Numbered from the stretch's first letter, positions 4,698-47,443 are shown. The stretch is DNA of 64,000 nt from an uncultured Pseudomonadales bacterium (GCA_964544755.1 CAZJDL010000001.1:5512-69511), one strand, 5' to 3'. The notes: generated from the sequence alone by a model not told the origin. Translations and numbers: made by a program.

Positions 4698-5815
4698 AGC
4701 TGCGCGCAAATATTAAACTGAAACGCGCTCAAGCCACCAGCCACTTCGAGCTGGCCGCTCAGTTTGAGCTGGACGAAAAAGGCATTACGGCACTGTACGG
4801 TCAGTCGGGGGCAGGAAAAACCAGCATTCTACGTTGTATTGCCGGGCTGGAGCGGCAAGGCACTTGCGCCATCAGCTACGGCGACTGCACCTGGCAAGCG
4901 CCGGACAACCGCCTCTTCGCGCCACCCGAACAGCGCAAAATCGCCTACGTGTTCCAGGAGAACCGCTTATTCCCGCATCTCACCGTGCAGGATAATTTAC
5001 GCTACGCATTTCAACGGCGCTTCGCCAGCCACGGCCCGAGTATAGACGACGCCGTCGAATGGTTTGGGCTGGTGGCTCTGCTCGCGCACTACCCGGCGCA
5101 ACTCTCCGGTGGCGAGGCGCGCCGGGTTGCGCTCTCGCGCGCGGCCTTATCGGCACCGCGATTGATGTTATTGGACGAGCCACTCAGCGGCGTCGATCTC
5201 GCCGGCAAAGCGGGCCTGCTGCTGGCGATTCGCCATTTACAGCAACAGCTGGCCTGCCCGATGCTGTATATTAGTCACCATATTGATGAGGTCAGTCAGG
5301 TTGCGGACTATTTAATGCTGTTAGACGCTGGCAAGATTGTTAGCCAGGGATCACTTATTGAGCTGTGTTCGCGCATCGACGCCAGCCTTGCGCATGAGCA
5401 GGACGCGGCTGCAATATTACAGTGCCGCGTCGTGCGGCGCGACACCGACTTTGCGCTAACGGAATTATCGTGCGGCGCGGAGCAACGACTCTTTCTCAGC
5501 GACAGCGAGCTACAAACAGATCAGCTTGTGCGCGTTCGAGTGCCCGCACGCGATGTAAGCATTGCGCTTAGCAAGCCCGCCGACAGCAGCATCCTGAATA
5601 TTTTGCACGCGCACATTGATGCGCTGGAAAATTCGCACAGCAGCAAAGTACTGCTGCGTCTGAAAATCGGCAAGCAGTATTTGCTGGCGCGCATTACCCG
5701 CAAATCGGCACAGCAACTGCAACTGCGCACAGGGCTTGGCGTGTACGCCCAGATAAAAAGCGTGGCGCTGCTTAATCAGGCGCTGGCCATCGATACACGA
5801 GCAAGCCATGAGTGA
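4694..5815 (+). CDS. modC: molybdate ABC transporter ATP-binding protein
   Basis: Walker A (GQSGAGKTS), ABC signature (LSGGEARR), a Walker B (LLDEP) and a C-terminal Mop/TOBE-like tail. The start is set at the ATG overlapping the modB stop. Confidence 0.88.
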   Translation: MKLRANIKLKRAQATSHFELAAQFELDEKGITALYGQSGAGKTSILRCIAGLERQGTCAISYGDCTWQAPDNRLFAPPEQRKIAYVFQENRLFPHLTVQDNLRYAFQRRFASHGPSIDDAVEWFGLVALLAHYPAQLSGGEARRVALSRAALSAPRLMLLDEPLSGVDLAGKAGLLLAIRHLQQQLACPMLYISHHIDEVSQVADYLMLLDAGKIVSQGSLIELCSRIDASLAHEQDAAAILQCRVVRRDTDFALTELSCGAEQRLFLSDSELQTDQLVRVRVPARDVSIALSKPADSSILNILHAHIDALENSHSSKVLLRLKIGKQYLLARITRKSAQQLQLRTGLGVYAQIKSVALLNQALAIDTRASHE

Positions 5816-8265: not shown

Positions 8266-10746
8266 ATGAGCCAACCGCAACATATTTTGCTAGCGCACCC
8301 GGATGAGCACAACCTGTATCGCATCAGGCGAGTCTTAAACGAGCGTGGCTTTCTAAACCTGATCGAGTCCGCAGGCGACCAACATACAATCAATGCGCTC
8401 AACGAATATGCATTTGACGCCGTCGTGGTTAACGTCGAACTGGGCATGCTCGATGCCTGGCGCCTGACACGCTTGATTCGCTCGGGCGCACTGAACACCA
8501 AGGCGAACACGCCAGTATTTATTGTATCAGCAACATTTAGCGAGCAGATCGCGCTGGCGACCGCCAAAGAATTTGAGGTCAACGCGTTTATACCCCTTGA
8601 CCAGGCGCACAAATTGCCGCGCCTGATGGAAGACATGTTTAGCCGCGGCGAAATCGAGCCGCCCAAGACCTCTATTCTCATTATCGAAGACTACGCCGAC
8701 ACCGCCAAGCTGGTTGAGCGCGTGCTAAAAAACCGCTTTGTTATTCAGTGCGCCAACGACGGCGAAGCCGGGCTGGAGGCGTGGAAAGAGGGCCGGCACG
8801 ACATTGTGCTGCTTGACCTGATGCTACCGAAGATGTCGGGCGAAGATGTGCTGCGTGAAATTTTGACCATCAAACCTACCCAATCGGTCATTATGATGAC
8901 CGCCTTCGGCAGCCCGGAGAAAGCCGGTAGTCTCATCGTCGGCGGCGCCGTTGATTTTATTGCCAAGCCGTTTCGCGCTGAACAATTGCGCCACGTTTGT
9001 AATATCGCCGCGCACCGGGAAGACTATATTGTCAGCAACCAGCAGTTCGAAGCGCGGCAGAAAGAACTGGCATCCGAAAAGGAACGTGCGCTGGTCACTC
9101 TCAAGTCGATCGGCGACGGTGTCATTACTACTAACGCCAAGGCCAAGGTGGATTATCTGAATCCGGTGGCCGAGCATCTGACCGGCTGGCTAAACGCGGA
9201 AGCCCACGGCAAGCCACTGGGTGAAATCTTCAAGACCTACCATGAATATTCGCGCGTACCGGCCGTCAGCCCGCTGGAGCGATGCCTGAATGAAAAGCGT
9301 TCAATACATTCCAAATCCAATATTCTGCTGCGCAGCCGGCAGGGCCTCGAGTTGGTGATTGAACATTCTGCTTCACCTATTCGCGACAGCAATAATGAGA
9401 TTGTCGGCGCGGTCATGGTGTTTCAAGACAATACAGAAGCGCGCAATCTTGAGAAGCAGCTGACCTATCATGCCAGTCATGACCCATTAACCGGCTTGAA
9501 GAATCGTCAGGTGTTCGACCAGGAAGTTAGCGTGTCATTGAAAGACAGCCATAGCTCACAAGTAGAACATGCGCTGTGCCATATCGACGTTAACGAATTC
9601 AAAATGATTAACGAAAGCCGTGGCCACGGCGCGGGCGACAAGTTACTACAGGAAGTCGCACAAATACTCATCAACAAAGTGCGCGCCCCTAGCGATGCGA
9701 TTGCCCGTTTGAGCGGCCACGAATTTGGTGTGCTGCTACGCTTTTGTCCGATCGATGCCGCCACGCGAATTTGTGAAAACATTTGCAGGGCGTTTGAAGC
9801 GTTTAATTTCAAAACAGGCCGTACTGAATATCAGATCACCGTGTCGATTGGGATTGCACAAGTCAATCAGGACAGCCTCGACTTCCAGGACGTCTTCGCC
9901 GCCTCGCAAGCCGCCTGCTACAAAGCGAAAAATCGCGGCGGCAACCGGGTGCATGTTTTTTCAGCGAACGATGACGAACTCTTGCAGCGGCGTAGCGAAG
10001 TGCAAGTTGCGTCAGAAATTGTGCAAGCAGAACGTGAGAACCGCTTCCAACTCTACTGCCAAAAAATTAAATCCTTGACCGACCCGGACGAAGTCAGTTT
10101 TGAAGTGTTGTTGCGTATGCGGGGCGAGAATAACGAGCTGATTTCGCCAGCACATTTCTTACCCGCCGCCGAACGCTTTAATTTAACCCCACAAATAGAT
10201 CGCTGGGTCGTGCGCAATGCGTTTCAATGGCTGGCAGACAACAAGAGCAAGCTCGATTCGCTGAGCCACTTTGCGATTAACCTGTCGGGCCTGTCGCTGG
10301 GCGACGAGAATTTTTACGATTATATTGCACAACAATTTACCCGCACCGGCGTACCCGCCGATAAGATTTGCTTCGAGATAACCGAAACCGCCGCGGTAAA
10401 GAACTTTAAACTCGCCGGCAGTTTTATCGACGCCATCCGTGAGCTGGGCTGCCGCTTTGCGCTCGACGATTTTGGCACCGGCATGTCGTCCTTTGCATAC
10501 TTGAAAAAACTGAAGGTCGATTTTCTTAAAATCGACGGCATCTTCGTCAAAGACATTCTGCAAGACCCCATCGACCTCGCGATGGTGCGCTCGATCAACG
10601 ATATTGGTCACGTTTCAGGACTTAAAACGATTGCCGAGTTCGTCGAAAACAAGGCGATTGAAGAAAAACTGCGCGAGGTCGGTGTCGACTATGTGCAAGG
10701 CTACGGCATCGACAAACCGAACCCGATTGATGATACACGCTGTTAA
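8266..10746 (+). CDS. response-regulator-type c-di-GMP protein: pseudo-REC, REC, PAS, degenerate GGDEF, EAL
   Basis: Two receiver-like domains. The first has Asn at the phospho-acceptor position (DAVVVNVEL); the second is canonical (DIVLLDLMLP). A PAS domain follows, then a GGDEF domain with SGHEF in place of GGDEF, and an EAL domain (EVLLR, DDFGTG). Confidence 0.85.
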   Translation: MSQPQHILLAHPDEHNLYRIRRVLNERGFLNLIESAGDQHTINALNEYAFDAVVVNVELGMLDAWRLTRLIRSGALNTKANTPVFIVSATFSEQIALATAKEFEVNAFIPLDQAHKLPRLMEDMFSRGEIEPPKTSILIIEDYADTAKLVERVLKNRFVIQCANDGEAGLEAWKEGRHDIVLLDLMLPKMSGEDVLREILTIKPTQSVIMMTAFGSPEKAGSLIVGGAVDFIAKPFRAEQLRHVCNIAAHREDYIVSNQQFEARQKELASEKERALVTLKSIGDGVITTNAKAKVDYLNPVAEHLTGWLNAEAHGKPLGEIFKTYHEYSRVPAVSPLERCLNEKRSIHSKSNILLRSRQGLELVIEHSASPIRDSNNEIVGAVMVFQDNTEARNLEKQLTYHASHDPLTGLKNRQVFDQEVSVSLKDSHSSQVEHALCHIDVNEFKMINESRGHGAGDKLLQEVAQILINKVRAPSDAIARLSGHEFGVLLRFCPIDAATRICENICRAFEAFNFKTGRTEYQITVSIGIAQVNQDSLDFQDVFAASQAACYKAKNRGGNRVHVFSANDDELLQRRSEVQVASEIVQAERENRFQLYCQKIKSLTDPDEVSFEVLLRMRGENNELISPAHFLPAAERFNLTPQIDRWVVRNAFQWLADNKSKLDSLSHFAINLSGLSLGDENFYDYIAQQFTRTGVPADKICFEITETAAVKNFKLAGSFIDAIRELGCRFALDDFGTGMSSFAYLKKLKVDFLKIDGIFVKDILQDPIDLAMVRSINDIGHVSGLKTIAEFVENKAIEEKLREVGVDYVQGYGIDKPNPIDDTRC

Positions 10747-10747
10747 A

Positions 10748-10781
10748 CCTAGTGCACTGTAACGAATAAACTGCACACTAG
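10748..10781. repeat. 34-bp inverted repeat, left copy (CCTAGTGCACTGTAACGAATAAACTGCACACTAG)
   Basis: It is the exact reverse complement of 16690-16723. It starts 1 nt after the TAA of the upstream gene and ends 13 nt before the stop codon of the last gene of the bracketed operon. Confidence 0.95.
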
Positions 10782-10794
10782 AAACCGCGCGCGA

Positions 10795-11613
10795 CTAGTC
10801 AGTCGGCACTGCGCGGATCGGTTTACCGGTATACTCGATATCGTCGCAGCGCAGTGGCAAGAAGGAGCCCTGCGGGCGATCGATATTATCGACGTAACAG
10901 GCTTCAATACCGGAACTCACAATCGCCGCAGAAACATTTTTTAATTGCTCGGGGCTAAAACCCTGATCCGTACCGAAGGCGGCGACGACGCCATTCATAT
11001 TCATTTGCTCGCCATACTGCGCGCTCAAATATGCTTCGATTTCTACCGCCAGCTTCTCATAGGGGCCGATAGGAAAACCCAGTTCACGCGCGTAAGCCCA
11101 TAGTATTTCCACCCGCTCGTCGCCTTTGACCAGTGGCCGGGCGAAGCCGGTGATATTGGGCCGACCTCTTCTTCGAGAGACTTCAAGCTCCACAATTTCT
11201 TTGACCGGCATTCCTTGCAGGCGCTTCGCGTAGGCGGAATGGAGGAATTCGCAGCCTTTCAAAATAGTGCCGCCGCCGTAGACTTCGGAGTAGGCTGCTT
11301 GGATACCGGCCGCTATCGCGGCTGCGTCCGGGCAATTTGCCTCCCCCCCCAGGGCGCCAATCTGGTTACACCATATTCTGGAGTCAGGCCAACTTTGAAA
11401 AATAAAAACCGCTTCTATCCAGTCGGCAATCTTTCGTTCCGGCATTTTTCCGGTCACATTTTGCACATGAATCTGCATGTAGGAATACTTCCCAATCACG
11501 CCATCCAGCAAATTAAGACCGTACGAAAACGCGCCCTTACCGAGTATCCAGCCGCCCGCGGCGCTGTAAACGTTGTTTCTGCGCTGATCCCAATAGTCGG
11601 TTTTATTCGGCAT
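10795..11613 (-). CDS. divergent citryl-CoA lyase / citrate-synthase-fold protein, paralog B
   Basis: Start set at MPNKTDYW, overlapping the stop of the upstream paralog by 11 nt. Residues line up by eye with the citrate synthase/ATP-citrate-lyase C-terminal module (ITGFARPLVKGDERV versus GFGHRVYKxxDPR; C-terminal LPLRCDDIEY versus RHPWDDISY). Confidence 0.6.
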   Translation of the reverse strand: MPNKTDYWDQRRNNVYSAAGGWILGKGAFSYGLNLLDGVIGKYSYMQIHVQNVTGKMPERKIADWIEAVFIFQSWPDSRIWCNQIGALGGEANCPDAAAIAAGIQAAYSEVYGGGTILKGCEFLHSAYAKRLQGMPVKEIVELEVSRRRGRPNITGFARPLVKGDERVEILWAYARELGFPIGPYEKLAVEIEAYLSAQYGEQMNMNGVVAAFGTDQGFSPEQLKNVSAAIVSSGIEACYVDNIDRPQGSFLPLRCDDIEYTGKPIRAVPTD

Positions 11614-12436
11614 TTTCGGTCTCGATGTGATAGTGATCATCGGCGGGAAACGGCACCGATGTGATCGGTTTGCCGACCAGTTCCATGCCATGCGCCAATA
11701 AGCCAGGCGCCGAACACAACTGGTATAGCCCCGCACCCGTCTTGGGATTAAAGCCGAGGTCACATAACACGGCGGCAAACAGCCCGGTTGGCAGCCAACC
11801 TATATTGGCGTGTCGCAGTCCAGCGACGAAACCGGCTGCCCAATGCATACACCCGCCAGCGCCCGGTAACGCCATCAGTGTGTTGGCGATTTTGCCGGTC
11901 AAGGGGTCGATACCATCAAACAAACGGCCAAAGCCGGGCACGCCTATCTCGCTACCGGGGTCAAGCCGGCTAGCCATGGTTGCGGCAAGCTGTTCCGGAT
12001 CGTCGCGGTTGTTGCGTACAATAAAGCGCATCGTCGGCAATACATCCTGCGCACCGCAATGTTCGCCGGCGAGAATTGACAGCGATATTGGCAATATCAA
12101 GGCGGGATCGGTTTTGCCAACAGCAGCTAACACTGCGGCGCGCGTCGCGGGGTGACGCGGACCCGGCGACATAAAGGCCACCATCAGGCAGCCAAACAGT
12201 TCGGCCTGTGCTTTATTTGGCAGCTCGCCGCGAAACAATAAGTAAACCGTATCCGAGAAACTACGTTTGCGTACCAGGTCAAGCAGATTGTAACCGTGGC
12301 AAAAGGCGTTTTCGGTTAAGTAGCTGTTTTCGGGATCACGTTCTTCAAGCCAGATTTTGGTCACCGTTTTTTTGGTGAAGGACTCGTCGCGTCGTTGAAT
12401 TTTCCGGGCTGGTGGTGCGTCGGCTTCGCTACTCAC
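11603..12436 (-). CDS. divergent citryl-CoA lyase / citrate-synthase-fold protein, paralog A
   Basis: GTG start with GGAG 8 nt upstream. Shows the HGYNLLDL...YLLFRGELP motif typical of citrate synthase N-terminal regions, then LMVAFMSPGPRHPAT, LAGEHCGAQD, VPGFGRLFDGIDPL and APGLLAHGMEL, in the same order as the ACLY/CCL motifs. Confidence 0.6.
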   Translation of the reverse strand: MSSEADAPPARKIQRRDESFTKKTVTKIWLEERDPENSYLTENAFCHGYNLLDLVRKRSFSDTVYLLFRGELPNKAQAELFGCLMVAFMSPGPRHPATRAAVLAAVGKTDPALILPISLSILAGEHCGAQDVLPTMRFIVRNNRDDPEQLAATMASRLDPGSEIGVPGFGRLFDGIDPLTGKIANTLMALPGAGGCMHWAAGFVAGLRHANIGWLPTGLFAAVLCDLGFNPKTGAGLYQLCSAPGLLAHGMELVGKPITSVPFPADDHYHIETENAE

Positions 12437-12455
12437 AACGGTTGCTCCTGAAGAG

Positions 12456-14663
12456 TTATTGGTTCAGACGGTAACTGAACTCGGCGAATATCGCTCTGCC
12501 TTCAAGACGGTAATCACCAGGTATTTCTTCGACCGGGGCGGCACTGGTAGCACCCCTGCTGGGCGCGAAGGCGTCTTTATCAAACACGTTGCGCGCCACG
12601 ATAGCGAATTCCAGGTTCTTGAACAATTTCTTACGGCGTAAAACTACATCAACAAGCGCATAGTCATCAACATCATCGCGCTGGTCCGATGCCGCTCTAT
12701 CTCTATCGGCCACCCAATTCGCGGTGGTACTTAAACTCCAGTCTGGCAGAAAATTCCAGGTCGCGGCCAGATACAACTGCCAGCCCGGCGCGTCTGCCAC
12801 GTGGTCACTGGTTGACCTATCTTCGCTGTGTTGCCACGCATAGTTGCCATCCAAAGAAAGAGAGTCGCTGGCTTTCCAGGAGTATTCAACTTCAAAACCA
12901 TAACCGTCCTGGTCAACTGCATTTTTGGCTTGCAGTACCCCACCCGCTGTTGCAGGCGCTACAAAACGGATCAAGTCCCGCATCCGGTAGGTAAACAGGT
13001 TGAGCTTGATATTCGATGTTGGCGTTGGCAGATAATCGAAGGCAAGTTCGATCGTGTCGATCATTTCGGGGTCTATGTTTTCATCACCGTGCAATACCGG
13101 GTTGGTTTCCGATAGTTCCAGAAAAGAGGGTGCCCGAAACGCCCGGCCGTACAGTAACTTCGAACTCAGGTTATAGCTGGTCGCCCACACCAGGGCCAGC
13201 CGCGGGTTGATTGTGCTGCCAAAGTCAGAATAGTCGTCGAAGCGCACACCGGCGGTAAGGCGCCAGTCATTGGCCAGCGCCCATTCGTCCTGCAAGGATG
13301 CGAACAAAATATTACGCTCACTGTCCTCGACAAACACGCTTTCGAAATTGGACGTATCAGTCAACGTACCATCGACGCTGGTTTCGTTCCCGTCGAGCAC
13401 GCCGGGGCCAAAATTTCTGGTTTCTTTCGGATCGCCTTCCTGGCGCTGGAAGCCCGCGGAAAACCGCAGTTTATGTTTGTCCCAGCCGGAATAATAAGTG
13501 ACAAGCTCTGCTGTGTGCTTTTGTTCCTCCCCACCGGGGTTACCTAAAACGCCATCCGGAAACGCCACCACTCGGGAAGCAGGAGGAAGTGAGGTGGTTA
13601 AACTCCCCGTCTCGTTATCAATCAAGGCAAGCGTTCCAGCCGGCAATAAGGTGTATTTGTTATCTGAGTCGAACAGGCTCAATGAGAGGCTCGTTTCATA
13701 ACGCCAATTTTCCGACAGCTCGTCATTGTAGGCCAGCGAAAAAAGATAATAATCGCCGTTTAGCTCACCGCCGGGATCGAGCGCATGCAAAACGCCATCG
13801 CCGACTCCCGTATCGTTTTGAACCCACGCCAGGAATGACGTTTTCCAGTGTTCGTTGTTTAATGCGATGCGGGCATTCAAAATATCGTAGCGCGTAGCAA
13901 GAGGGCCAGGCGCGTTGGAGGCATTGATGCCAAAAGCGCTGTCCCCGAGTGTTTGCAGGTCTGCATCAACAATACGATCGTCATCGCCGTTGCTTTTTGC
14001 ATATTCCAGGCTGGTGGAGAACTGCCATGTATCACCCACTGCGCCGCCAGCTTGTAGCCAGTAATCTTGCTTGTCGAATGACCCATAGCGTACGCCGGCT
14101 TCAATACCGTCGATGTCCGAAGGGCTTTTTGAGATGACATTGATGACCCCGGCAAACGCGTCGGCGCCAAAAACGGCCGAGCCGGGGCCGCGGATGATCT
14201 CGATGCGCTTGATATTTTGCACCGGCATGGTAAATCCGGTCGGCAGGCCACCGTTGAAGACTTGCCGGAGTGGAACACCGTCGATCAACAGCAAAACCTG
14301 CGGGTTTTGCGCCGTATGAATGCCACGAATGGAATAAACCGAACTGAGTACGTTATTGCTGGAGAGTGACACATGCAAGCCCGGCACCATTTCCAGCGCC
14401 TCTTGCAAATTGGTTGCGCCGCGATTGCGAATGTCGGCCTCGCTAACGACGCTGGCGATAGATGGCGCCAACCTGATCGACTGCTCCGTGCCGGTGGAGA
14501 TGCTGATCGTCTCGTCGTCGCCGTACAGCTCCAGCAAATCGTCTTCGTCAAAATCCGAGTATGCGTGAGCAGGCACAAGGCCGAACAACGCAACAATTCC
14601 CGTTAGCAGGATTTCACGGGTACGCTTGCCGACCGGCAATTGATCATAAAATGAGCGACTCAT
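12456..14663 (-). CDS. TonB-dependent outer-membrane receptor
   Basis: Signal peptide, TonB-box-like DETISISTG, plug domain (IEIIRGPGSAVFGADAFAGVINVISK) and a long beta-barrel. It lies 19 nt upstream of paralog A. Confidence 0.88.
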   Translation of the reverse strand: MSRSFYDQLPVGKRTREILLTGIVALFGLVPAHAYSDFDEDDLLELYGDDETISISTGTEQSIRLAPSIASVVSEADIRNRGATNLQEALEMVPGLHVSLSSNNVLSSVYSIRGIHTAQNPQVLLLIDGVPLRQVFNGGLPTGFTMPVQNIKRIEIIRGPGSAVFGADAFAGVINVISKSPSDIDGIEAGVRYGSFDKQDYWLQAGGAVGDTWQFSTSLEYAKSNGDDDRIVDADLQTLGDSAFGINASNAPGPLATRYDILNARIALNNEHWKTSFLAWVQNDTGVGDGVLHALDPGGELNGDYYLFSLAYNDELSENWRYETSLSLSLFDSDNKYTLLPAGTLALIDNETGSLTTSLPPASRVVAFPDGVLGNPGGEEQKHTAELVTYYSGWDKHKLRFSAGFQRQEGDPKETRNFGPGVLDGNETSVDGTLTDTSNFESVFVEDSERNILFASLQDEWALANDWRLTAGVRFDDYSDFGSTINPRLALVWATSYNLSSKLLYGRAFRAPSFLELSETNPVLHGDENIDPEMIDTIELAFDYLPTPTSNIKLNLFTYRMRDLIRFVAPATAGGVLQAKNAVDQDGYGFEVEYSWKASDSLSLDGNYAWQHSEDRSTSDHVADAPGWQLYLAATWNFLPDWSLSTTANWVADRDRAASDQRDDVDDYALVDVVLRRKKLFKNLEFAIVARNVFDKDAFAPSRGATSAAPVEEIPGDYRLEGRAIFAEFSYRLNQ

Positions 14664-14791
14664 TGTTGCTTGTTATCACCCCCGTGACGCATCATTTTTT
14701 ACGATAGCGAGCTACTGGGAAAACCAGGTACTCTTTTCAAGAGAGTATAAATATAGTCGATATTCTACAATTTGCTTATAAAGACGAGTTT

Positions 14792-16669
14792 TTAGTGCAT
14801 TTTTTGCAATACTCTGAGCCGTTCCCCCATCGGTGGCGCTTCCTCAGGGTCGATATAAACGTCTATAACGCTTGGCTTGCTCGATTTTAACAAGGCGCAG
14901 AAATCGATTTGGCCCAGGTCATCGGGAGTTTTGACGCGAATGCCGTTTGCTCCCATCGCAATGGCCACCGCCGCAAAATCAATCGCCGGCAGGTACTGCC
15001 CGACCTGCTCACCGCCGCCAAGCCGCTGCCCGTGTTTGACCATACCGAGTGATTGATCATTCAACACGATGAATAGCACCGGCAAGTTGTGCTCAACGGC
15101 AACCGTCAGCTCCTGGCCGCTCATCAACATGCTGCCATCGCCGGTGATACACACGGTCGGCGCCTTGCGGCTGCCTAACGAGGTACCTACGCTGGCGCCA
15201 ATCGCCCAGGCCATCGAACCGTAACCCATTGCGGTACGCACGGTGCCGACAAATTTACGTTGCAGATAATGCAGCCCCCAACACCACGCATTACCCGCGT
15301 CCAGCAGAAACCGGGTGTGGTTCGGCAAGACATGGGCCAAATCGTACATCAAACGTTGTGGTTTAAGCGGCACGGCAGCGGATAAGCACAGCTCGGCTTT
15401 GTCATAGGTAAGTTGCGTAGGTAGCAGGTCGGGCGCTAACTTCACCAGCCCTTTAGCTGCAGGCGGCGTTTCGTCAACGGCATGCAATAGCACCGTGGTG
15501 GGTTTGTGTCGCGGTACAACCCGCAGCAATTTACCAAACACCGCCTTGAGATTGCCGAACACGTGCAAATAGGCCATCGGCGACTGCATGAAGTTTTCGG
15601 CACAGCTTTCGACATGGATGAGCCTGTCGTTCAGGATAACGTTGTCCCAACCCGCCGTTGCAATCTCACTCAGCCCGGTGCCTATGGCGATAACGTTCGC
15701 GACGTCGGATCGTTCCAGGGCGGCGCGCGCGCTGGCATGTCCCGCCAAGCCAAAAACGCCGCGGTACTGCGGATGATAAGCATTGACCCATTGCTTGCCG
15801 CCAGGTGTCGCAACGATTAATGCGTTAACCGCTTCGGCGAGTTGAATAATTTCATCGATCGCTTCGCCGCAGCTTTCGCCGATGAGAAACACCGGCCGCT
15901 GCCGCGCGCGCATGGCATTTAACAAGTCTGTTTCCAGTTGCGCGACCGCCCGCTGGTCGATAACCGGCGGCGAGCGCAGCTGAGTCGCAACGTTAAAGAA
16001 GGTGGGCACAGCAACGATCGACCCTTTAAGGATATCTAACGGGATGCTCAAATGCACCGGCCCGCGCGGCTGGCTGAAGGCGCTGATCAACGCGCTGACC
16101 AGCTTGCTTTCCAACTGCGAGGGATGCGACACCAGCGAATTGTAGCGCGTACAGTGCTCGAACATACCCACCACATCGATGGCATCGCTGGACGACTCCT
16201 GCAACCCCAGCCGGCCAAAATTGGGTAAAGCGATTTGCGGCGTGATCACCAACATCGGAATGTGATCGGCATAGGCCGATGCGACACCGGTCAACAAGTT
16301 GGTGCTTCCTGGGCCCGTGGTCGCGCAGCAAACCGCGAGCTTACCGGTTTCACGCGAGTAGCCGTCGGCCATAAAGGCAGCACCGGCTTCATGGCGTGCG
16401 AAAACGGGCGTCGGCCCATGCCGCGAGCGCTTGCTTTTGCGCGCCAGTGCCCGCTGACCATAATTGATCGTGGCCAACCCGGCACCGCGTTGCTTCCTGG
16501 CTATCGCATCAAAAAACGGTTCTATCGCCCCACCTTGAATACCAAAAACATACTCCACACCTATTTGCGCGAGGTACTCGACGATAAGGTCAGAGTAGGT
16601 GTGATTGGTGGCCGCAACGGGGTTTTGCTGAAGTGCATTTTGCAAAGCTTCTACTACATTATCAGTCAT
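14792..16669 (-). CDS. thiamine-diphosphate-dependent enzyme, acetolactate synthase large-subunit-like
   Basis: PYR domain with the catalytic-Glu motif RHEAG, GPGSTNL, and the ThDP-binding GDGS...NDQ motif. GGAG lies 8 nt upstream of the ATG. No ALS small subunit is adjacent. Confidence 0.85.
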   Translation of the reverse strand: MTDNVVEALQNALQQNPVAATNHTYSDLIVEYLAQIGVEYVFGIQGGAIEPFFDAIARKQRGAGLATINYGQRALARKSKRSRHGPTPVFARHEAGAAFMADGYSRETGKLAVCCATTGPGSTNLLTGVASAYADHIPMLVITPQIALPNFGRLGLQESSSDAIDVVGMFEHCTRYNSLVSHPSQLESKLVSALISAFSQPRGPVHLSIPLDILKGSIVAVPTFFNVATQLRSPPVIDQRAVAQLETDLLNAMRARQRPVFLIGESCGEAIDEIIQLAEAVNALIVATPGGKQWVNAYHPQYRGVFGLAGHASARAALERSDVANVIAIGTGLSEIATAGWDNVILNDRLIHVESCAENFMQSPMAYLHVFGNLKAVFGKLLRVVPRHKPTTVLLHAVDETPPAAKGLVKLAPDLLPTQLTYDKAELCLSAAVPLKPQRLMYDLAHVLPNHTRFLLDAGNAWCWGLHYLQRKFVGTVRTAMGYGSMAWAIGASVGTSLGSRKAPTVCITGDGSMLMSGQELTVAVEHNLPVLFIVLNDQSLGMVKHGQRLGGGEQVGQYLPAIDFAAVAIAMGANGIRVKTPDDLGQIDFCALLKSSKPSVIDVYIDPEEAPPMGERLRVLQKMH

Positions 16670-16689
16670 TGGCTGCTCCAGGTAAAAAG

Positions 16690-16723
16690 CTAGTGTGCAG
16701 TTTATTCGTTACAGTGCACTAGG
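16690..16723. repeat. 34-bp inverted repeat, right copy (CTAGTGTGCAGTTTATTCGTTACAGTGCACTAGG)
   Basis: It is the exact reverse complement of 10748-10781 and lies 21 nt upstream of the ThDP-enzyme start codon, next to its Shine-Dalgarno sequence. Confidence 0.95.
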
Positions 16724-17138
16724 GCCTGCTAACACTATTTTCATCATTATTGCCGGAGACCATTTTTCGGCCACCCAGGCAGAAGGAGCGAGCTGTAGTG
16801 ACTCTACATAAGCGATTGATAACGCCGCTGGGCGAGAAATGGTTCCGCCCCTGCGGATTGCGCCTGCTGCTTCTTATCCTCGCCAGCGGCATGCCGCAAG
16901 CTGGCTTATTCTTTTCGTTTAAAATTAATTTTTGGTGACAAACTGCGGCGTGGCCACAACAAGGGCGAGCATGGTATCGTTCGCATTTAGAATAGTCACT
17001 TCGTATCACTAAAGTTTAACAAGATTAAACAATCTACAAGATGGCGGCTAAAAACCATACAAGACAGTCGGCAAGCGCGGAATGCCGAAGTTTTTCACCC
17101 TCAGAATGAGGTAAGTCCCGGATTATTGGCTAGACTGT

Positions 17139-18167
17139 ATGGATACTTTTGTCGTGATGTGCCATCGCGCAGAACCTCCGGCCCCAGGAAAAGCGTTGTT
17201 TGTGAATTGCTTTTGTTCACGCCTTACTCGCATCGTTAAGCATTTAACGTGGTGGAGGCTGCTGTGCTGCGCTTTGTTTTTTGCGTTGACGCAACCTGCG
17301 TTTGCCGCACCGCTGAAATTCGCCGTTGTTGTGCCTGAAACCGCAAGCAAAGCGCAGGTCATTTATGACGAAATCGTACAGGGCCTACGCAGCGCGGAAA
17401 ATGTTGAGCTAACGCTTTACCGGCTCAGCAGCGCCGCGAAGCGCGACGAAGCGGCAGTGCACAAATGGTTAAGCGGGCAAAACGCGAATGCCGTAATCAG
17501 CATCGGCAGGAACGCACATAACCTGGTAAAAAACTTCGCCACTGATATACCGCTTATCGCCGGCGGAATATCCATTTCGCCAAACCACACCTCTGGCGTC
17601 AGCCTGACCGGCGATCCACAGGAGTTTTTCAAAAACCTGGTGCGAATTGCACCCAAGGTCGAACGGATTTTTCTGATTTACAACAATGCGATCAATGGCT
17701 GGTGGGTAGATTCAGCACGCGCCGCCGCCAGTGAACACAACATAGATCTGCAAGCTTTGCAGGCGGAAGACGTAAAGTCAGGCGCCAAATTGTATCAGCG
17801 CGTATTGAACGGCGCGCGTTCGGGAAAGGACGCCATATGGATTCCGTTAGTCAGTATTGTACCGTCAAAAACAGTACTGCCAATGGTACTGAGGAAGGCA
17901 TGGGAAAAAAACCTCGTGGTATTTACCAATAGCGCGGCCCATGCCCGACAAGGCGCTTTATTCTCGATGTATCCCGACAATGTGGCACTGGGTGAACAGT
18001 TGATAGAGCTGGCCATCGAGCAAACGACAACCAGCGGCGCCAACGTCAGGGTGGCGCCGGTCAAAAAATTGAAAACGGCTTTCAACTTACGCACGGCGTC
18101 CCACCTGGGACTGAAATATTCGTTACGGCGGGGCGGTGGTTTTGACCGAATTTATTCAGCACAGTAA
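17139..18167 (+). CDS. periplasmic ABC-type substrate-binding-like protein (likely sensor partner); start uncertain
   Basis: Signal peptide (WWRLLCCALFFALTQPAFA/AP) followed by a binding-protein-like fold. It overlaps the downstream histidine kinase gene by 32 nt. The true start may be an internal GTG or TTG. Confidence 0.55.
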   Translation: MDTFVVMCHRAEPPAPGKALFVNCFCSRLTRIVKHLTWWRLLCCALFFALTQPAFAAPLKFAVVVPETASKAQVIYDEIVQGLRSAENVELTLYRLSSAAKRDEAAVHKWLSGQNANAVISIGRNAHNLVKNFATDIPLIAGGISISPNHTSGVSLTGDPQEFFKNLVRIAPKVERIFLIYNNAINGWWVDSARAAASEHNIDLQALQAEDVKSGAKLYQRVLNGARSGKDAIWIPLVSIVPSKTVLPMVLRKAWEKNLVVFTNSAAHARQGALFSMYPDNVALGEQLIELAIEQTTTSGANVRVAPVKKLKTAFNLRTASHLGLKYSLRRGGGFDRIYSAQ

Positions 18168-21314: not shown

Positions 21315-22166
21315 ATGACAACTCATCGCATTCGCATCGCCAGCACCGATACCGTTACCGATCCGGTTTGGCAACAAATTCAGCAGGAGACCGCGGAAGA
21401 TGCCCGGCAGGAGCCAGTGCTGGCAAGCTTCTTTCACGCTACCATTCTCAACCACAGCACCCTGGAAGCCGCACTCAGCTTTCACCTCGCCAACAAATTA
21501 GACAGCGCTACCGCTTCGGCGCTGCTGGTGCGCGAAGTTATTCAGGAGGCGCTGGATACTGAACCCGCCATACGCGCTTCTATTCGCGCCGATTTGCAAG
21601 CCGTCGCCGACCGTGACTCAGCGTGCTGCAAGCTGGCAGCGCCATTTTTGTTCTTCAAGGGTTTTCATGCACTGCAAGCATATCGCGTGGCCCATTGGCT
21701 GTGGCGCGCCAAACGTGAGTCGCTGGCACTGTTTCTGCAAAACCGCATCTCGGTTGAGTTCGGCGTCGACATTCACCCGGCCGCACGCATCGGCAGCGGT
21801 ATTTTGCTCGATCACGCAACGGGACTTGTGATTGGCGAAACCGCCGTAGTGGGTAACAATGTGTCCCTGATGCAATCCGTTACGCTGGGAGGAACGGGTA
21901 AGGAATCGGGCGATCGGCATCCGAAAGTCAGCGACGGCGTGTTGATCAGCGCGGGCGCCAAAGTGCTGGGCAATATTCGTATTGGCAGGGGCGCCAAGGT
22001 AGGGGCCGGTAGTGTCGTGCTAACCGATGTGCCGGCGCATACTACGGTAGCCGGTGTACCCGCTGAAATTGTCGGTAAACCCTGCTGCAGTGAGCCGGCG
22101 CTGGAGATGGATCACAATTTAAAGGACGATATTGAATCGGCTGCTGCTTCCAGCGAGAACAGCTAG
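21315..22166 (+). CDS. cysE: serine O-acetyltransferase
   Basis: SATase N-terminal helical domain plus hexapeptide repeats (GVDIHPAARIGSGILLDHATGLVIGETA). Confidence 0.85.
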   Translation: MTTHRIRIASTDTVTDPVWQQIQQETAEDARQEPVLASFFHATILNHSTLEAALSFHLANKLDSATASALLVREVIQEALDTEPAIRASIRADLQAVADRDSACCKLAAPFLFFKGFHALQAYRVAHWLWRAKRESLALFLQNRISVEFGVDIHPAARIGSGILLDHATGLVIGETAVVGNNVSLMQSVTLGGTGKESGDRHPKVSDGVLISAGAKVLGNIRIGRGAKVGAGSVVLTDVPAHTTVAGVPAEIVGKPCCSEPALEMDHNLKDDIESAAASSENS

Positions 22167-30956: not shown

Positions 30957-31140
30957 ATCCTAGAAACCGCAGTTGGATCACGAAAGTATGCGCCAGCTCT
31001 TAATGCGCATGGAAAATTCGAAAAAGCTCTCATCACCAATAAGGTGACCACGAGTTTTTCGAATCTCCCATGCACATCAAGCTTTTTATATGAATCAAGA
31101 GGTGCACATCTTTTTCGCGCCCAACTGCGGTTTCTAGGAT
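30957..31140. repeat. 184-bp hairpin-forming MITE-like element with 20-bp perfect terminal inverted repeats
   Basis: ATCCTAGAAACCGCAGTTGG at 30957-30976 is the exact reverse complement of CCAACTGCGGTTTCTAGGAT at 31121-31140. The interior is an imperfect palindrome centred near 31045. No ORF with a ribosome-binding site is present. Confidence 0.85.
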
Positions 31141-46659: not shown

Positions 46660-47295
46660 ATGGCGCAGGATTTTGCCAAACGGCGTAGCAATAATGGGCG
46701 CCGGGCAAAAAAAGGGGGTAACTCGGGCCCGATATGGCTGGTCACCGGCCTGTTGTGCGGCTTCTTTCTGGCCTTTTTGCTGCAGCTGGCCGGCGTAAGC
46801 CTGGTGCCAAATAACGCCGACCGCGTGGCCGCCCCCGTAGCGGATTCAGAGCTGAACACCACGAATCAGGAACGAGGACAACCCGCAAAAAAACCGCGCT
46901 TCGAGTTTTATGCCCTGCTGCCGGAAGCGAAAGTGGAGGTGCAGGAAGAAGCGGAAGTTCCGGTTGCGGAGTCCTCTTCGAGTACGGCGCTGAAAAACAC
47001 CGAACAAAGTAAGCCATTGGCAAGCACCCGACGAGACACGCCAGCCACCAACGCTACCCGGTATGTTTTACAGGCCGGATCGTTTAAAAGCCACAGCGAT
47101 GCCGATCGACTGCGCGCCAGGTTATTGTTGATGGGACTTGAAGCCAGTATCGAAAAGGTCAGATTAAGCGGCACCGACAACCGCCACCGGGTGCATGTGG
47201 GTCCGTTTGTGGCGCGCGCGGAAATGCTTGATGCCCGCAAGCAGCTAACCAAGGCTCGGATAGACACGCTGCTGCTGGAACGCAAGATTCGCTAG
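46660..47295 (+). CDS. SPOR-domain membrane protein (FtsN-like position)
   Basis: N-terminal basic region plus a TM segment, a linker, and a C-terminal SPOR domain (YVLQAGSFKSHSDADRLRARL). It lies between argS and hslV. Confidence 0.75.
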   Translation: MAQDFAKRRSNNGRRAKKGGNSGPIWLVTGLLCGFFLAFLLQLAGVSLVPNNADRVAAPVADSELNTTNQERGQPAKKPRFEFYALLPEAKVEVQEEAEVPVAESSSSTALKNTEQSKPLASTRRDTPATNATRYVLQAGSFKSHSDADRLRARLLLMGLEASIEKVRLSGTDNRHRVHVGPFVARAEMLDARKQLTKARIDTLLLERKIR

Positions 47296-47443
47296 TGTAC
47301 CGTAACGAGTAAAGTGTACCTAGCAGAAGTCATCAAAGTCAGTGCACTAGGAGGCTGCTTGAAGCTGGCAACCGCAGTGGGATCATGAAAGTATGCACGC
47401 GCTCTTAATGCACATCTTTTCCGCACCCAACTGCAGTTTCCAG
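47292..47443. repeat. composite intergenic repeat: CTAG-hairpin module (47292-47323), GTGCACTAG fragment (47342-47350) and a short form of the MITE-like element (47365-47443)
   Basis: CTAGTGTACCGTAACGAGTAAAGTGTACCTAG aligns with the 34-bp repeat at 10748. Positions 47365-47443 align with both ends of the 30957-31140 element, with about 100 bp of its centre missing. Confidence 0.8.

Follow-up and report, generated by a model that had tools for sequence, protein, structure and literature searches.

The four-gene operon at positions 10795-16669 (minus strand) of a 64,000-nucleotide stretch of DNA from an uncultured Pseudomonadales bacterium (GCA_964544755.1, CAZJDL010000001.1:5512-69511; hereafter the window) is framed by a perfect 34-bp inverted repeat. 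We consider it highly probable that the two arms of this repeat are separate, lineage-specific insertions of a 27-bp miniature derivative of an insertion sequence (IS) or miniature inverted-repeat transposable element (MITE) of the IS630 family (Tc1/mariner superfamily), and that the operon between them is ancestral at its locus. The 27-bp unit is a 'solo TIR', which consists of a complete terminal inverted repeat (TIR) and, after it, the few terminal bases of the opposite end. The perfect repeat is the product of two recent insertions, ordinary mobile-element litter, and neither an operon switch nor a cassette.

Geometry of the inverted repeat

The 34-mer CCTAGTGCACTGTAACGAATAAACTGCACACTAG is found at 10748-10781 (+) and its exact reverse complement at 16690-16723. 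The geometry described in the original prediction was recovered in full: the repeat is perfect and identity stops at both of its ends (preceding base A versus C, following base A versus C), the right copy is 21 nt upstream of the first start codon (20 nt separate it from the ATG, its nearest base being at -21), the left copy is 13 nt past the last stop codon (that of ORF 10795-11613, minus strand), and four open reading frames (ORFs) are the sole coding content between the copies. The left copy also begins 1 nt after the convergent GGDEF-EAL gene (8266-10746, +) has ended, and the right copy lies in the presumed 5' leader of the operon. No further match to the 34-mer with up to 3 mismatches occurs across the 64-kb window, and none was obtained in 100 shuffles.

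Each 34-mer reads C-TA-GTGCACTGTAACGAATAAACTGCACAC-TA-G plus one C that matches by chance; the inserted DNA amounts to 27 bp and a TA, the remainder being target sequence. In the left 34-mer (10748-10781, +) the 27-bp solo-TIR unit occupies 10752-10778, and the duplicated TA is found at 10750-10751 and 10779-10780, inside the CTAG tetranucleotides 10749-10752 and 10778-10781. In the right 34-mer (16690-16723, -) an identical unit occupies 16693-16719; here the TA dinucleotides are those at 16691-16692 and 16720-16721, and the CTAG sites those at 16690 and 16719. Both copies have their TIR reading inward, the left one towards the operon.

The left insertion site

A lineage about 95% identical to the window, represented among the loci fetched for comparison (designated L) by L098 and L102, which come from one sample, and by L090, from an NCBI metagenome-assembled genome (MAG), carries the operon at the identical locus and in the identical orientation. 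Its left site is empty in L098, where CCTAG is followed directly by AAACCGC (in full, GCTGTTAAACCTAGAAACCGCGCACGACTAG). The window has at this position GCTGTTAAACCTAG(TGCACTGTAACGAATAAACTGCACACTAG)AAACCGCGCGCGACTAG, exactly 29 nt more than L098, namely the 27-bp unit and a TA. This alignment shows the left site as a 29-nt insertion accompanied by TA duplication. The empty site fits the insertion of these 29 nt alone, not that of a 5.9-kb unit.

The repeat belongs to an IS630-type family

When one genome of each GTDB species was scanned for the shared core CTAGTGNNNNGTAACGANTAAA, 84 loci were retrieved, most of them from Ca. Thiodiazotropha, Sedimenticola, Niveibacterium and MAGs named 'Pseudomonadales bacterium'. 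The majority of the core matches are situated 100-137 nt from a contig end and point outward, a placement characteristic of the terminus of a multicopy repeat that breaks short-read assembly. When 89 copies were lined up, the sequence to the left of CTAG was random and an inward consensus, CTAGTGTGGTGTAACGAATAAAnnGnACATATCAG, started from CTAG. Two inverted termini (CTAGTG..TGTAACGAATAAA) enclose in L014 an IS of 1186 bp with a single ORF. Its 362-aa product is recognized by the NCBIfam model NF033545 'IS630 family transposase' (259.6 bits for a cut-off of 100) and has Pfam DDE_3 and HTH domains. Transposase homologues adjoin the motif in six more loci (L072, L046, L021, L042, L041 and L013). 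Among annotated plasmid-borne proteins, the closest relatives are IS630-family transposases, with about 52-56% identity. The identical ends are also those of MITEs of 174-292 bp flanked by CTAG...CTAG (L012, L015, L081 and L082) and of yet smaller derivatives in L084 (57 bp), L036 (...GGCACACTAG) and L075. Full-length MITEs of the family would end in CTAGTGCACTG / CTAGTGTGC(A/T)G. The family is frequent in uncultured Gammaproteobacteria, its terminus flanking both IS630 transposase genes and MITEs of 170-290 bp. Judged from these alignments, the 27-bp unit is shown to carry the complete TIR of an IS630-family (Tc1/mariner-type) IS/MITE family.

The features that mark an IS630-derived insertion were found at the bracketing repeats: ends that match a transposase-bearing element, TA duplication in CTAG (established for the left copy by the empty site and suggested for the right copy by its C-TA...TA-G junctions), and presence/absence polymorphism among related genomes. 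The elements IS630 and ISY100 duplicate TA on insertion and require in cis about 24-30 bp of inverted repeat per end, a 24-bp inverted repeat being judged to suffice (PMC2170065). Cut-and-paste insertion into TA, preferably that of CTAG, is attributed to the IS630 family in passages of PMC2170065 and in a title that it cites (Tenzen & Ohtsubo 1991). A MITE in the strict sense has two TIRs around a short core, an architecture that the 27-bp unit lacks: it has one complete TIR (the 19-nt core and the inner part) and only about 5-8 nt of the opposite end (…CACAC). Since there is no second full TIR, the unit is better named a solo-TIR remnant than a MITE.

The 64 kb contain two identical copies and one diverged copy of the repeat. 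The diverged member, located at 47292-47350 (+), is internally deleted (CTAGTGTACCGTAACGAGTAAAGTGTACCTAG...CAGTGCACTAG) and resembles the start of the L071 MITE; its detection by a weaker scan places the 34-mer in a repeat family.

The IS630-type MITE family ends dozens of contigs in some MAGs (e.g., JASFJX01 and JBBKXJ01). In the MAGs concerned, Ca. Thiodiazotropha Bin_25 and Pseudomonadales bacterium metabat_bins.161, it is one of the main causes of fragmented assemblies.

The operon is ancestral at its locus

L092, L099+L091 and L098+L102 all have the conserved gene order GGDEF-EAL / operon / ABC-binding-protein / histidine-kinase, and the distant relatives among these (L099+L091 and L092) have kept it without the 34-mer. 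Over 21 kb, the window and its 95% relative differ by indels longer than 14 nt only at the two repeat sites. Because relatives that have neither copy keep the operon, the latter is ancestral at the locus and was not brought in as cargo. It had been proposed that the copies could be the termini of a non-autonomous, cargo-carrying mobile cassette, to be discarded if relatives held the operon in the same place without repeats. One part of this proposal stands, since the repeats are indeed transposon termini with a complete IS630-family TIR. The other is refuted: L098+L102, L090 and L099+L091 keep the repeat-free operon in place and in orientation. Of the two hallmarks of a composite or cargo element, inward-facing transposase-binding ends are present at both borders; the cargo is not absent where the ends are absent, nor is the unit found elsewhere.

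The genome of the window recurs in several metagenome assemblies. Both repeats are present, with the orientation of the window, in L085 (100% identical) and L094 (99.99%), and the right copy is present in L104 and L105, which cover this copy only. L101, 98% identical to the window, has the left copy. It also has an extra member of the family (CTAGTGTGCTGTAACGAATAAAGTGCA...) at the CTAG 22163-22166 of the window, which is empty in the latter. This polymorphic insertion indicates that the family is active in this population.

The right copy is absent in L102, L090 and the more distant L091, although their thiamine-diphosphate enzyme (TPP-enzyme) gene and Shine-Dalgarno region match those of the window. 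At the right site, homology covers the TPP-enzyme gene and the Shine-Dalgarno region, breaks off exactly at 16690 and restarts at 16863. The 34-mer and a 139-nt unique segment just outside it (16724-16862) stand where L102, L090 and L091 have in common an unrelated sequence of 81 nt. In BLAST searches against all fetched loci the 139-nt segment had no match beyond the lineage of the window, and its alignment score with the ancestral 81 nt was not above that of shuffles.

Further observations were made around the right site. The 139-nt segment, which lies in the leader/promoter region of the operon, holds an inverted repeat (GCCGGAGACCATTTTTCGGCC / GGGCGAGAAATGGTTCCGCC) and, on the operon strand, a sequence resembling a Fur box (AATAATGATGAAAATAGTG). 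L101 has a 1.6-kb deletion (L101 4586-4592; window 15337-16960) that removed the 5' two-thirds of the TPP gene, the leader and the site of the right copy. L092 (9605-10000) has the other three operon genes and no TPP-enzyme gene, which is the variable part of the operon.

Scarcity of CTAG and the second MITE family

The window contains 50 CTAG sites against 244 expected from base composition, an about five-fold depletion, and only one lies within the operon coding sequence. The bracket is tight because CTAG is rare and insertions are tolerated only between genes: the nearest tolerated CTAGs would happen to lie immediately past the last stop codon and immediately ahead of the ribosome-binding site. 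Several of the CTAGs remaining in the window are MITE junctions.

A second CTAG-targeting MITE family of about 165-180 bp, named here MITE-B, has a full copy in the window at 30959-31138 with the TIR CCTAGAAACCGC...GCGGTTTCTAGG, evidence that miniature elements targeting CTAG are common in this genome. There is a MITE-B fragment at 47370-47443, and in L092 the orthologue of the left 34-mer site is occupied by a full-length MITE-B (5555-5717). In the window, segment 10778-10798 reads CTAG-AAACCGCGCGCGA-CTAG, with a 13-nt remnant at 10782-10794 that is also present in L098. To judge by its sequence, 10778-10798 is probably a remnant of MITE-B, and the left 27-bp unit is inserted at the terminal CTAG of this MITE-B remnant.

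Small repeats are likewise nested between two genes at 47292-47443, where the diverged IS630-type member directly abuts the MITE-B fragment.

Origin of the 27-bp unit

At each site the transposase would insert into the TA of CTAG and duplicate this TA, yielding C-TA-[27 bp]-TA-G at both copies. These would be identical since they derived from one active element subfamily. We privilege as most likely the inferred route in which a MITE or IS hopped locally and left an identical scar at each visit by microhomology-mediated deletion or abortive gap repair; such local hopping would account for both the identity and the proximity of the copies.

Reverse-complemented, the right end of the unit (CTGCACAC-TAG) gives a proper family terminus (CTAGTGTGCAG), and the additional element of L101 starts CTAGTGTGCTG. 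A deletion between the inner part of the TIR (…CTGCACA) and the other terminus (…GCACAC followed by TA) would give exactly the 27-bp product. Alternatively, abortive gap repair after excision, with the ends joined by that same microhomology, would have the identical outcome. A junction of like kind is found in L036, which belongs to another genus, and a variant junction in L075. Microhomology-mediated miniaturization has been documented for Tc1/mariner elements (PMC3814204). We infer the shrinkage to 27 bp, the entry of the right copy into a CTAG and any effect on expression; the right copy would add a hairpin to the 5' leader of the operon and the left copy a hairpin between two convergent genes.

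Several points weigh against two separate insertions of a miniature derivative. The 64-kb window and about 100 kb from close relatives contain neither a full-length parent MITE nor an IS630 transposase gene. That two independent miniaturizations should yield 27/27 identical products is not parsimonious, except with a strongly directed deletion or with copying of the unit as such. In JGI metagenomes, a scan for solo-TIR forms (CTAGTG..GTAACGA.TAAA N3-12 CTAG) gave one unrelated cyanobacterial-like chance match, and such forms are therefore not generally abundant. Finally, an empty site for the right copy was not recovered, 16690-16862 being replaced relative to every relative examined; the arrival of this copy in a CTAG is deduced only from its CTAG/TA junctions. 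A search for the right empty site in contigs P0197, P0202, P0201 and P0195 led to the repeat-bearing L104/L105, to the deletion variant L101, or to L102 with its 173-nt stretch replaced.

Two other origins of the pair were considered and rejected. Intramolecular replicative transposition with inversion, as a single source of both copies, is contradicted by the operon orientation, which is that of the repeat-free relatives, and by the cut-and-paste mode of IS630. Import of the whole repeat-flanked operon by recombination disagrees with divergence being alike inside the operon and in its flanks (identity to L098/L102 of 91.7-96.0% and 93.1-95.5%, respectively).

Alternative explanations

It is unlikely, though compatible with two insertions of the solo TIR, that the copies act on the operon mRNA, the one in the 5' leader pairing with the one in the 3' untranslated region (UTR) to form a 34-bp duplex that is either cleaved by RNase III or stabilizing. 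The predicted duplex has -61.3 kcal/mol versus -7.2 and -11.7 kcal/mol for the local hairpins. The right copy is 20 nt from the ATG, which requires the promoter to be upstream, so that the copy should be transcribed, and no canonical terminator is predicted after the last stop codon before the left copy is reached. RNase III is described to act on transcribed hairpins of Correia MITEs in Neisseria in passages of PMC2649163. Against these arguments, 5.9 kb of translated mRNA separate the sites, each copy is able to fold alone, and both are absent in the 95%-identical relatives that have the operon. From this absence it follows that any effect would be incidental and not a selected design. The end duplex, as modelled, is thermodynamically feasible and may possibly form, in this lineage only. 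Promoter and terminator scans yielded nothing above shuffle expectation; one terminator-like match, at 10792-10773, overlaps the left copy and has a poor T-tract. A permissive Rfam scan of 10000-18000 gave only a sub-threshold chance match inside a coding region, and no known RNA family thus explains the repeat or the leader.

There is likewise a small chance that the 27-bp solo TIR is itself copied from site to site and/or that the inward pair constitutes a new 5.97-kb cassette mobilizable in trans. Direct copying of the unit would explain the 27/27 identity of insertions 5.9 kb apart, and no smaller transposable unit would then be known in bacteria. Taken by itself, the idea of a nascent cargo transposon, in which the inward TIRs now render the 5.97-kb segment mobilizable by an IS630-family transposase supplied in trans, is rather improbable. 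Both copies hold a whole TIR directed inward from the outer TA, the family is active in this population and MITE-flanked integrons are known (PMC10969869). If mobilization does occur, the locus offers a snapshot of chromosomal operons turning into cargo. However, the exact TPP-enzyme protein was found only in this single context, in six contigs from several samples, and no copy of the unit was seen at other loci. The window has no transposase gene, an inward-inverted orientation is expected for 1/4 of random pairs, and the availability of CTAG accounts fully for the bracketing.

Phase variation of the operon by inversion between the two 34-bp arms, as envisaged by the original prediction, is very improbable and found no support. 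Perfect inverted homology of 34 bp is at hand, which is about the minimum length for RecA-dependent recombination; RecA-dependent inversion at very low frequency is possible. Nevertheless, the window, L085 and L094, the three assemblies that span both copies, are collinear and show one orientation (they are separate consensus assemblies, which a minor orientation could escape), and this orientation equals that of the repeat-free relatives. The remark that no recombinase is encoded nearby proved right for the annotated genes of window 777-28167: the precomputed Pfam lists of all genes called in this interval include no recombinase, resolvase, integrase, invertase or transposase. The four operon proteins, checked directly, also include no recombinase or transposase. 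The site-specific recombinase expected in or beside an invertible segment is thus missing from this interval, and the repeats are recent transposon debris rather than a conserved switch. Logan contigs break inside the 34-mer because the repeat is longer than the k-mer of the assembler, which we take to be 31, and they are therefore uninformative on orientation.

That the copies are REP/REPIN palindromes spread by a RAYT (IS200/IS605-like) transposase has a negligible probability: they are short, imperfectly palindromic, intergenic and at an operon end, but they have no GTAG-type head, no RAYT was found, insertion makes a TA duplication in CTAG, and the sequence forms the TIR of elements coding for a DDE IS630 transposase and not a Y1 enzyme.

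Relation to known systems and significance

The repeat shares with IS630 of Shigella sonnei and ISY100 of Synechocystis that it is the TIR of elements bearing an NF033545 transposase, that insertion occurs at TA in CTAG with TA duplication, and that no more than a TIR of about 24-30 bp is needed in cis (PMC2170065). Unlike these elements, the copies of the window have no transposase and one complete TIR each, and the transposases associated with the family share no more than about 56% identity with annotated plasmid-borne IS630-family members.

The IS630/Tc1-mariner MITEs, such as RUP of Streptococcus pneumoniae, the TA-duplicating Correia elements of Neisseria and the eukaryotic Stowaway-like elements, resemble the unit in being non-autonomous, intergenic, TA-flanked and made from transposon ends. 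Clustering and nesting with other small repeats (PMC10969869), an origin by deletion between microhomologies (PMC3814204) and the ability to put hairpins in UTRs are further likenesses. These described MITEs are, however, about 100 to 400 bp long, versus a 27-bp unit that is devoid of a second full TIR.

Contrary to what was stated earlier, systems in which small repeats frame genes have been described. A review (PMC10969869) presents class 1 integrons flanked by identical MITEs, and the title of Tenzen & Ohtsubo 1991, as given in PMC2170065, names an IS630-associated composite transposon. These composites, among them the class 1 integrons of Acinetobacter, also have identical small inverted elements, with ends bound by transposase, that bracket a multigene segment. 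In contrast to them, the genes bracketed here are ancestral and repeat-free in relatives, and there is no sign that the unit ever moved.

The family is an undescribed member of a well-known class, currently active in uncultured marine Gammaproteobacteria. Its interest lies in a clean pair of filled and empty sites and in an unusually small, TIR-only derivative of 27 bp. The case also calls for caution, showing that repeat framing tight to the nucleotide can arise without function from a target-specific transposon and few allowed sites. If solo TIRs stay substrates of the transposase, pairs of them could seed new cargo transposons.

Operon genes and upstream region

The first gene of the operon (14792-16669, -) codes for a thiamine-diphosphate enzyme similar to the acetolactate synthase large subunit, with the Pfam domains TPP_enzyme_N, M and C; its NCBIfam matches are all under their cut-offs. 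This gene belongs to the host and not to a mobile element. The second gene (12456-14663, -) codes for a TonB-dependent outer-membrane receptor (Pfam Plug and TonB_dep_Rec_b-barrel) and has kept its position in L092, L099 and L098. The third (11603-12436, -; 277 aa) and the fourth (10795-11613, -; 272 aa) code for a citryl-CoA lyase / citrate synthase-like and a citryl-CoA lyase-like protein, respectively, and the TAG stop of the fourth overlaps the CTAG at 10795. The combination of an acetolactate synthase-like enzyme, a TonB-dependent receptor and two tandem citryl-CoA lyase-like proteins of about 275 aa is unusual. Homologues of the 272-aa protein are widespread in metagenomes and often carry the label 'citrate synthase'.

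The non-coding region 16863-17138, which separates the operon from the divergent ABC-binding-protein gene, is strongly conserved, even where the ABC-binding protein is only 76% identical. It includes conserved stretches (e.g., GAGCATGGTATCGTTC...AATAGTCAC...AAGTTTAACAA), and the region gave no Rfam match. This conservation suggests that putative regulatory sites are shared.

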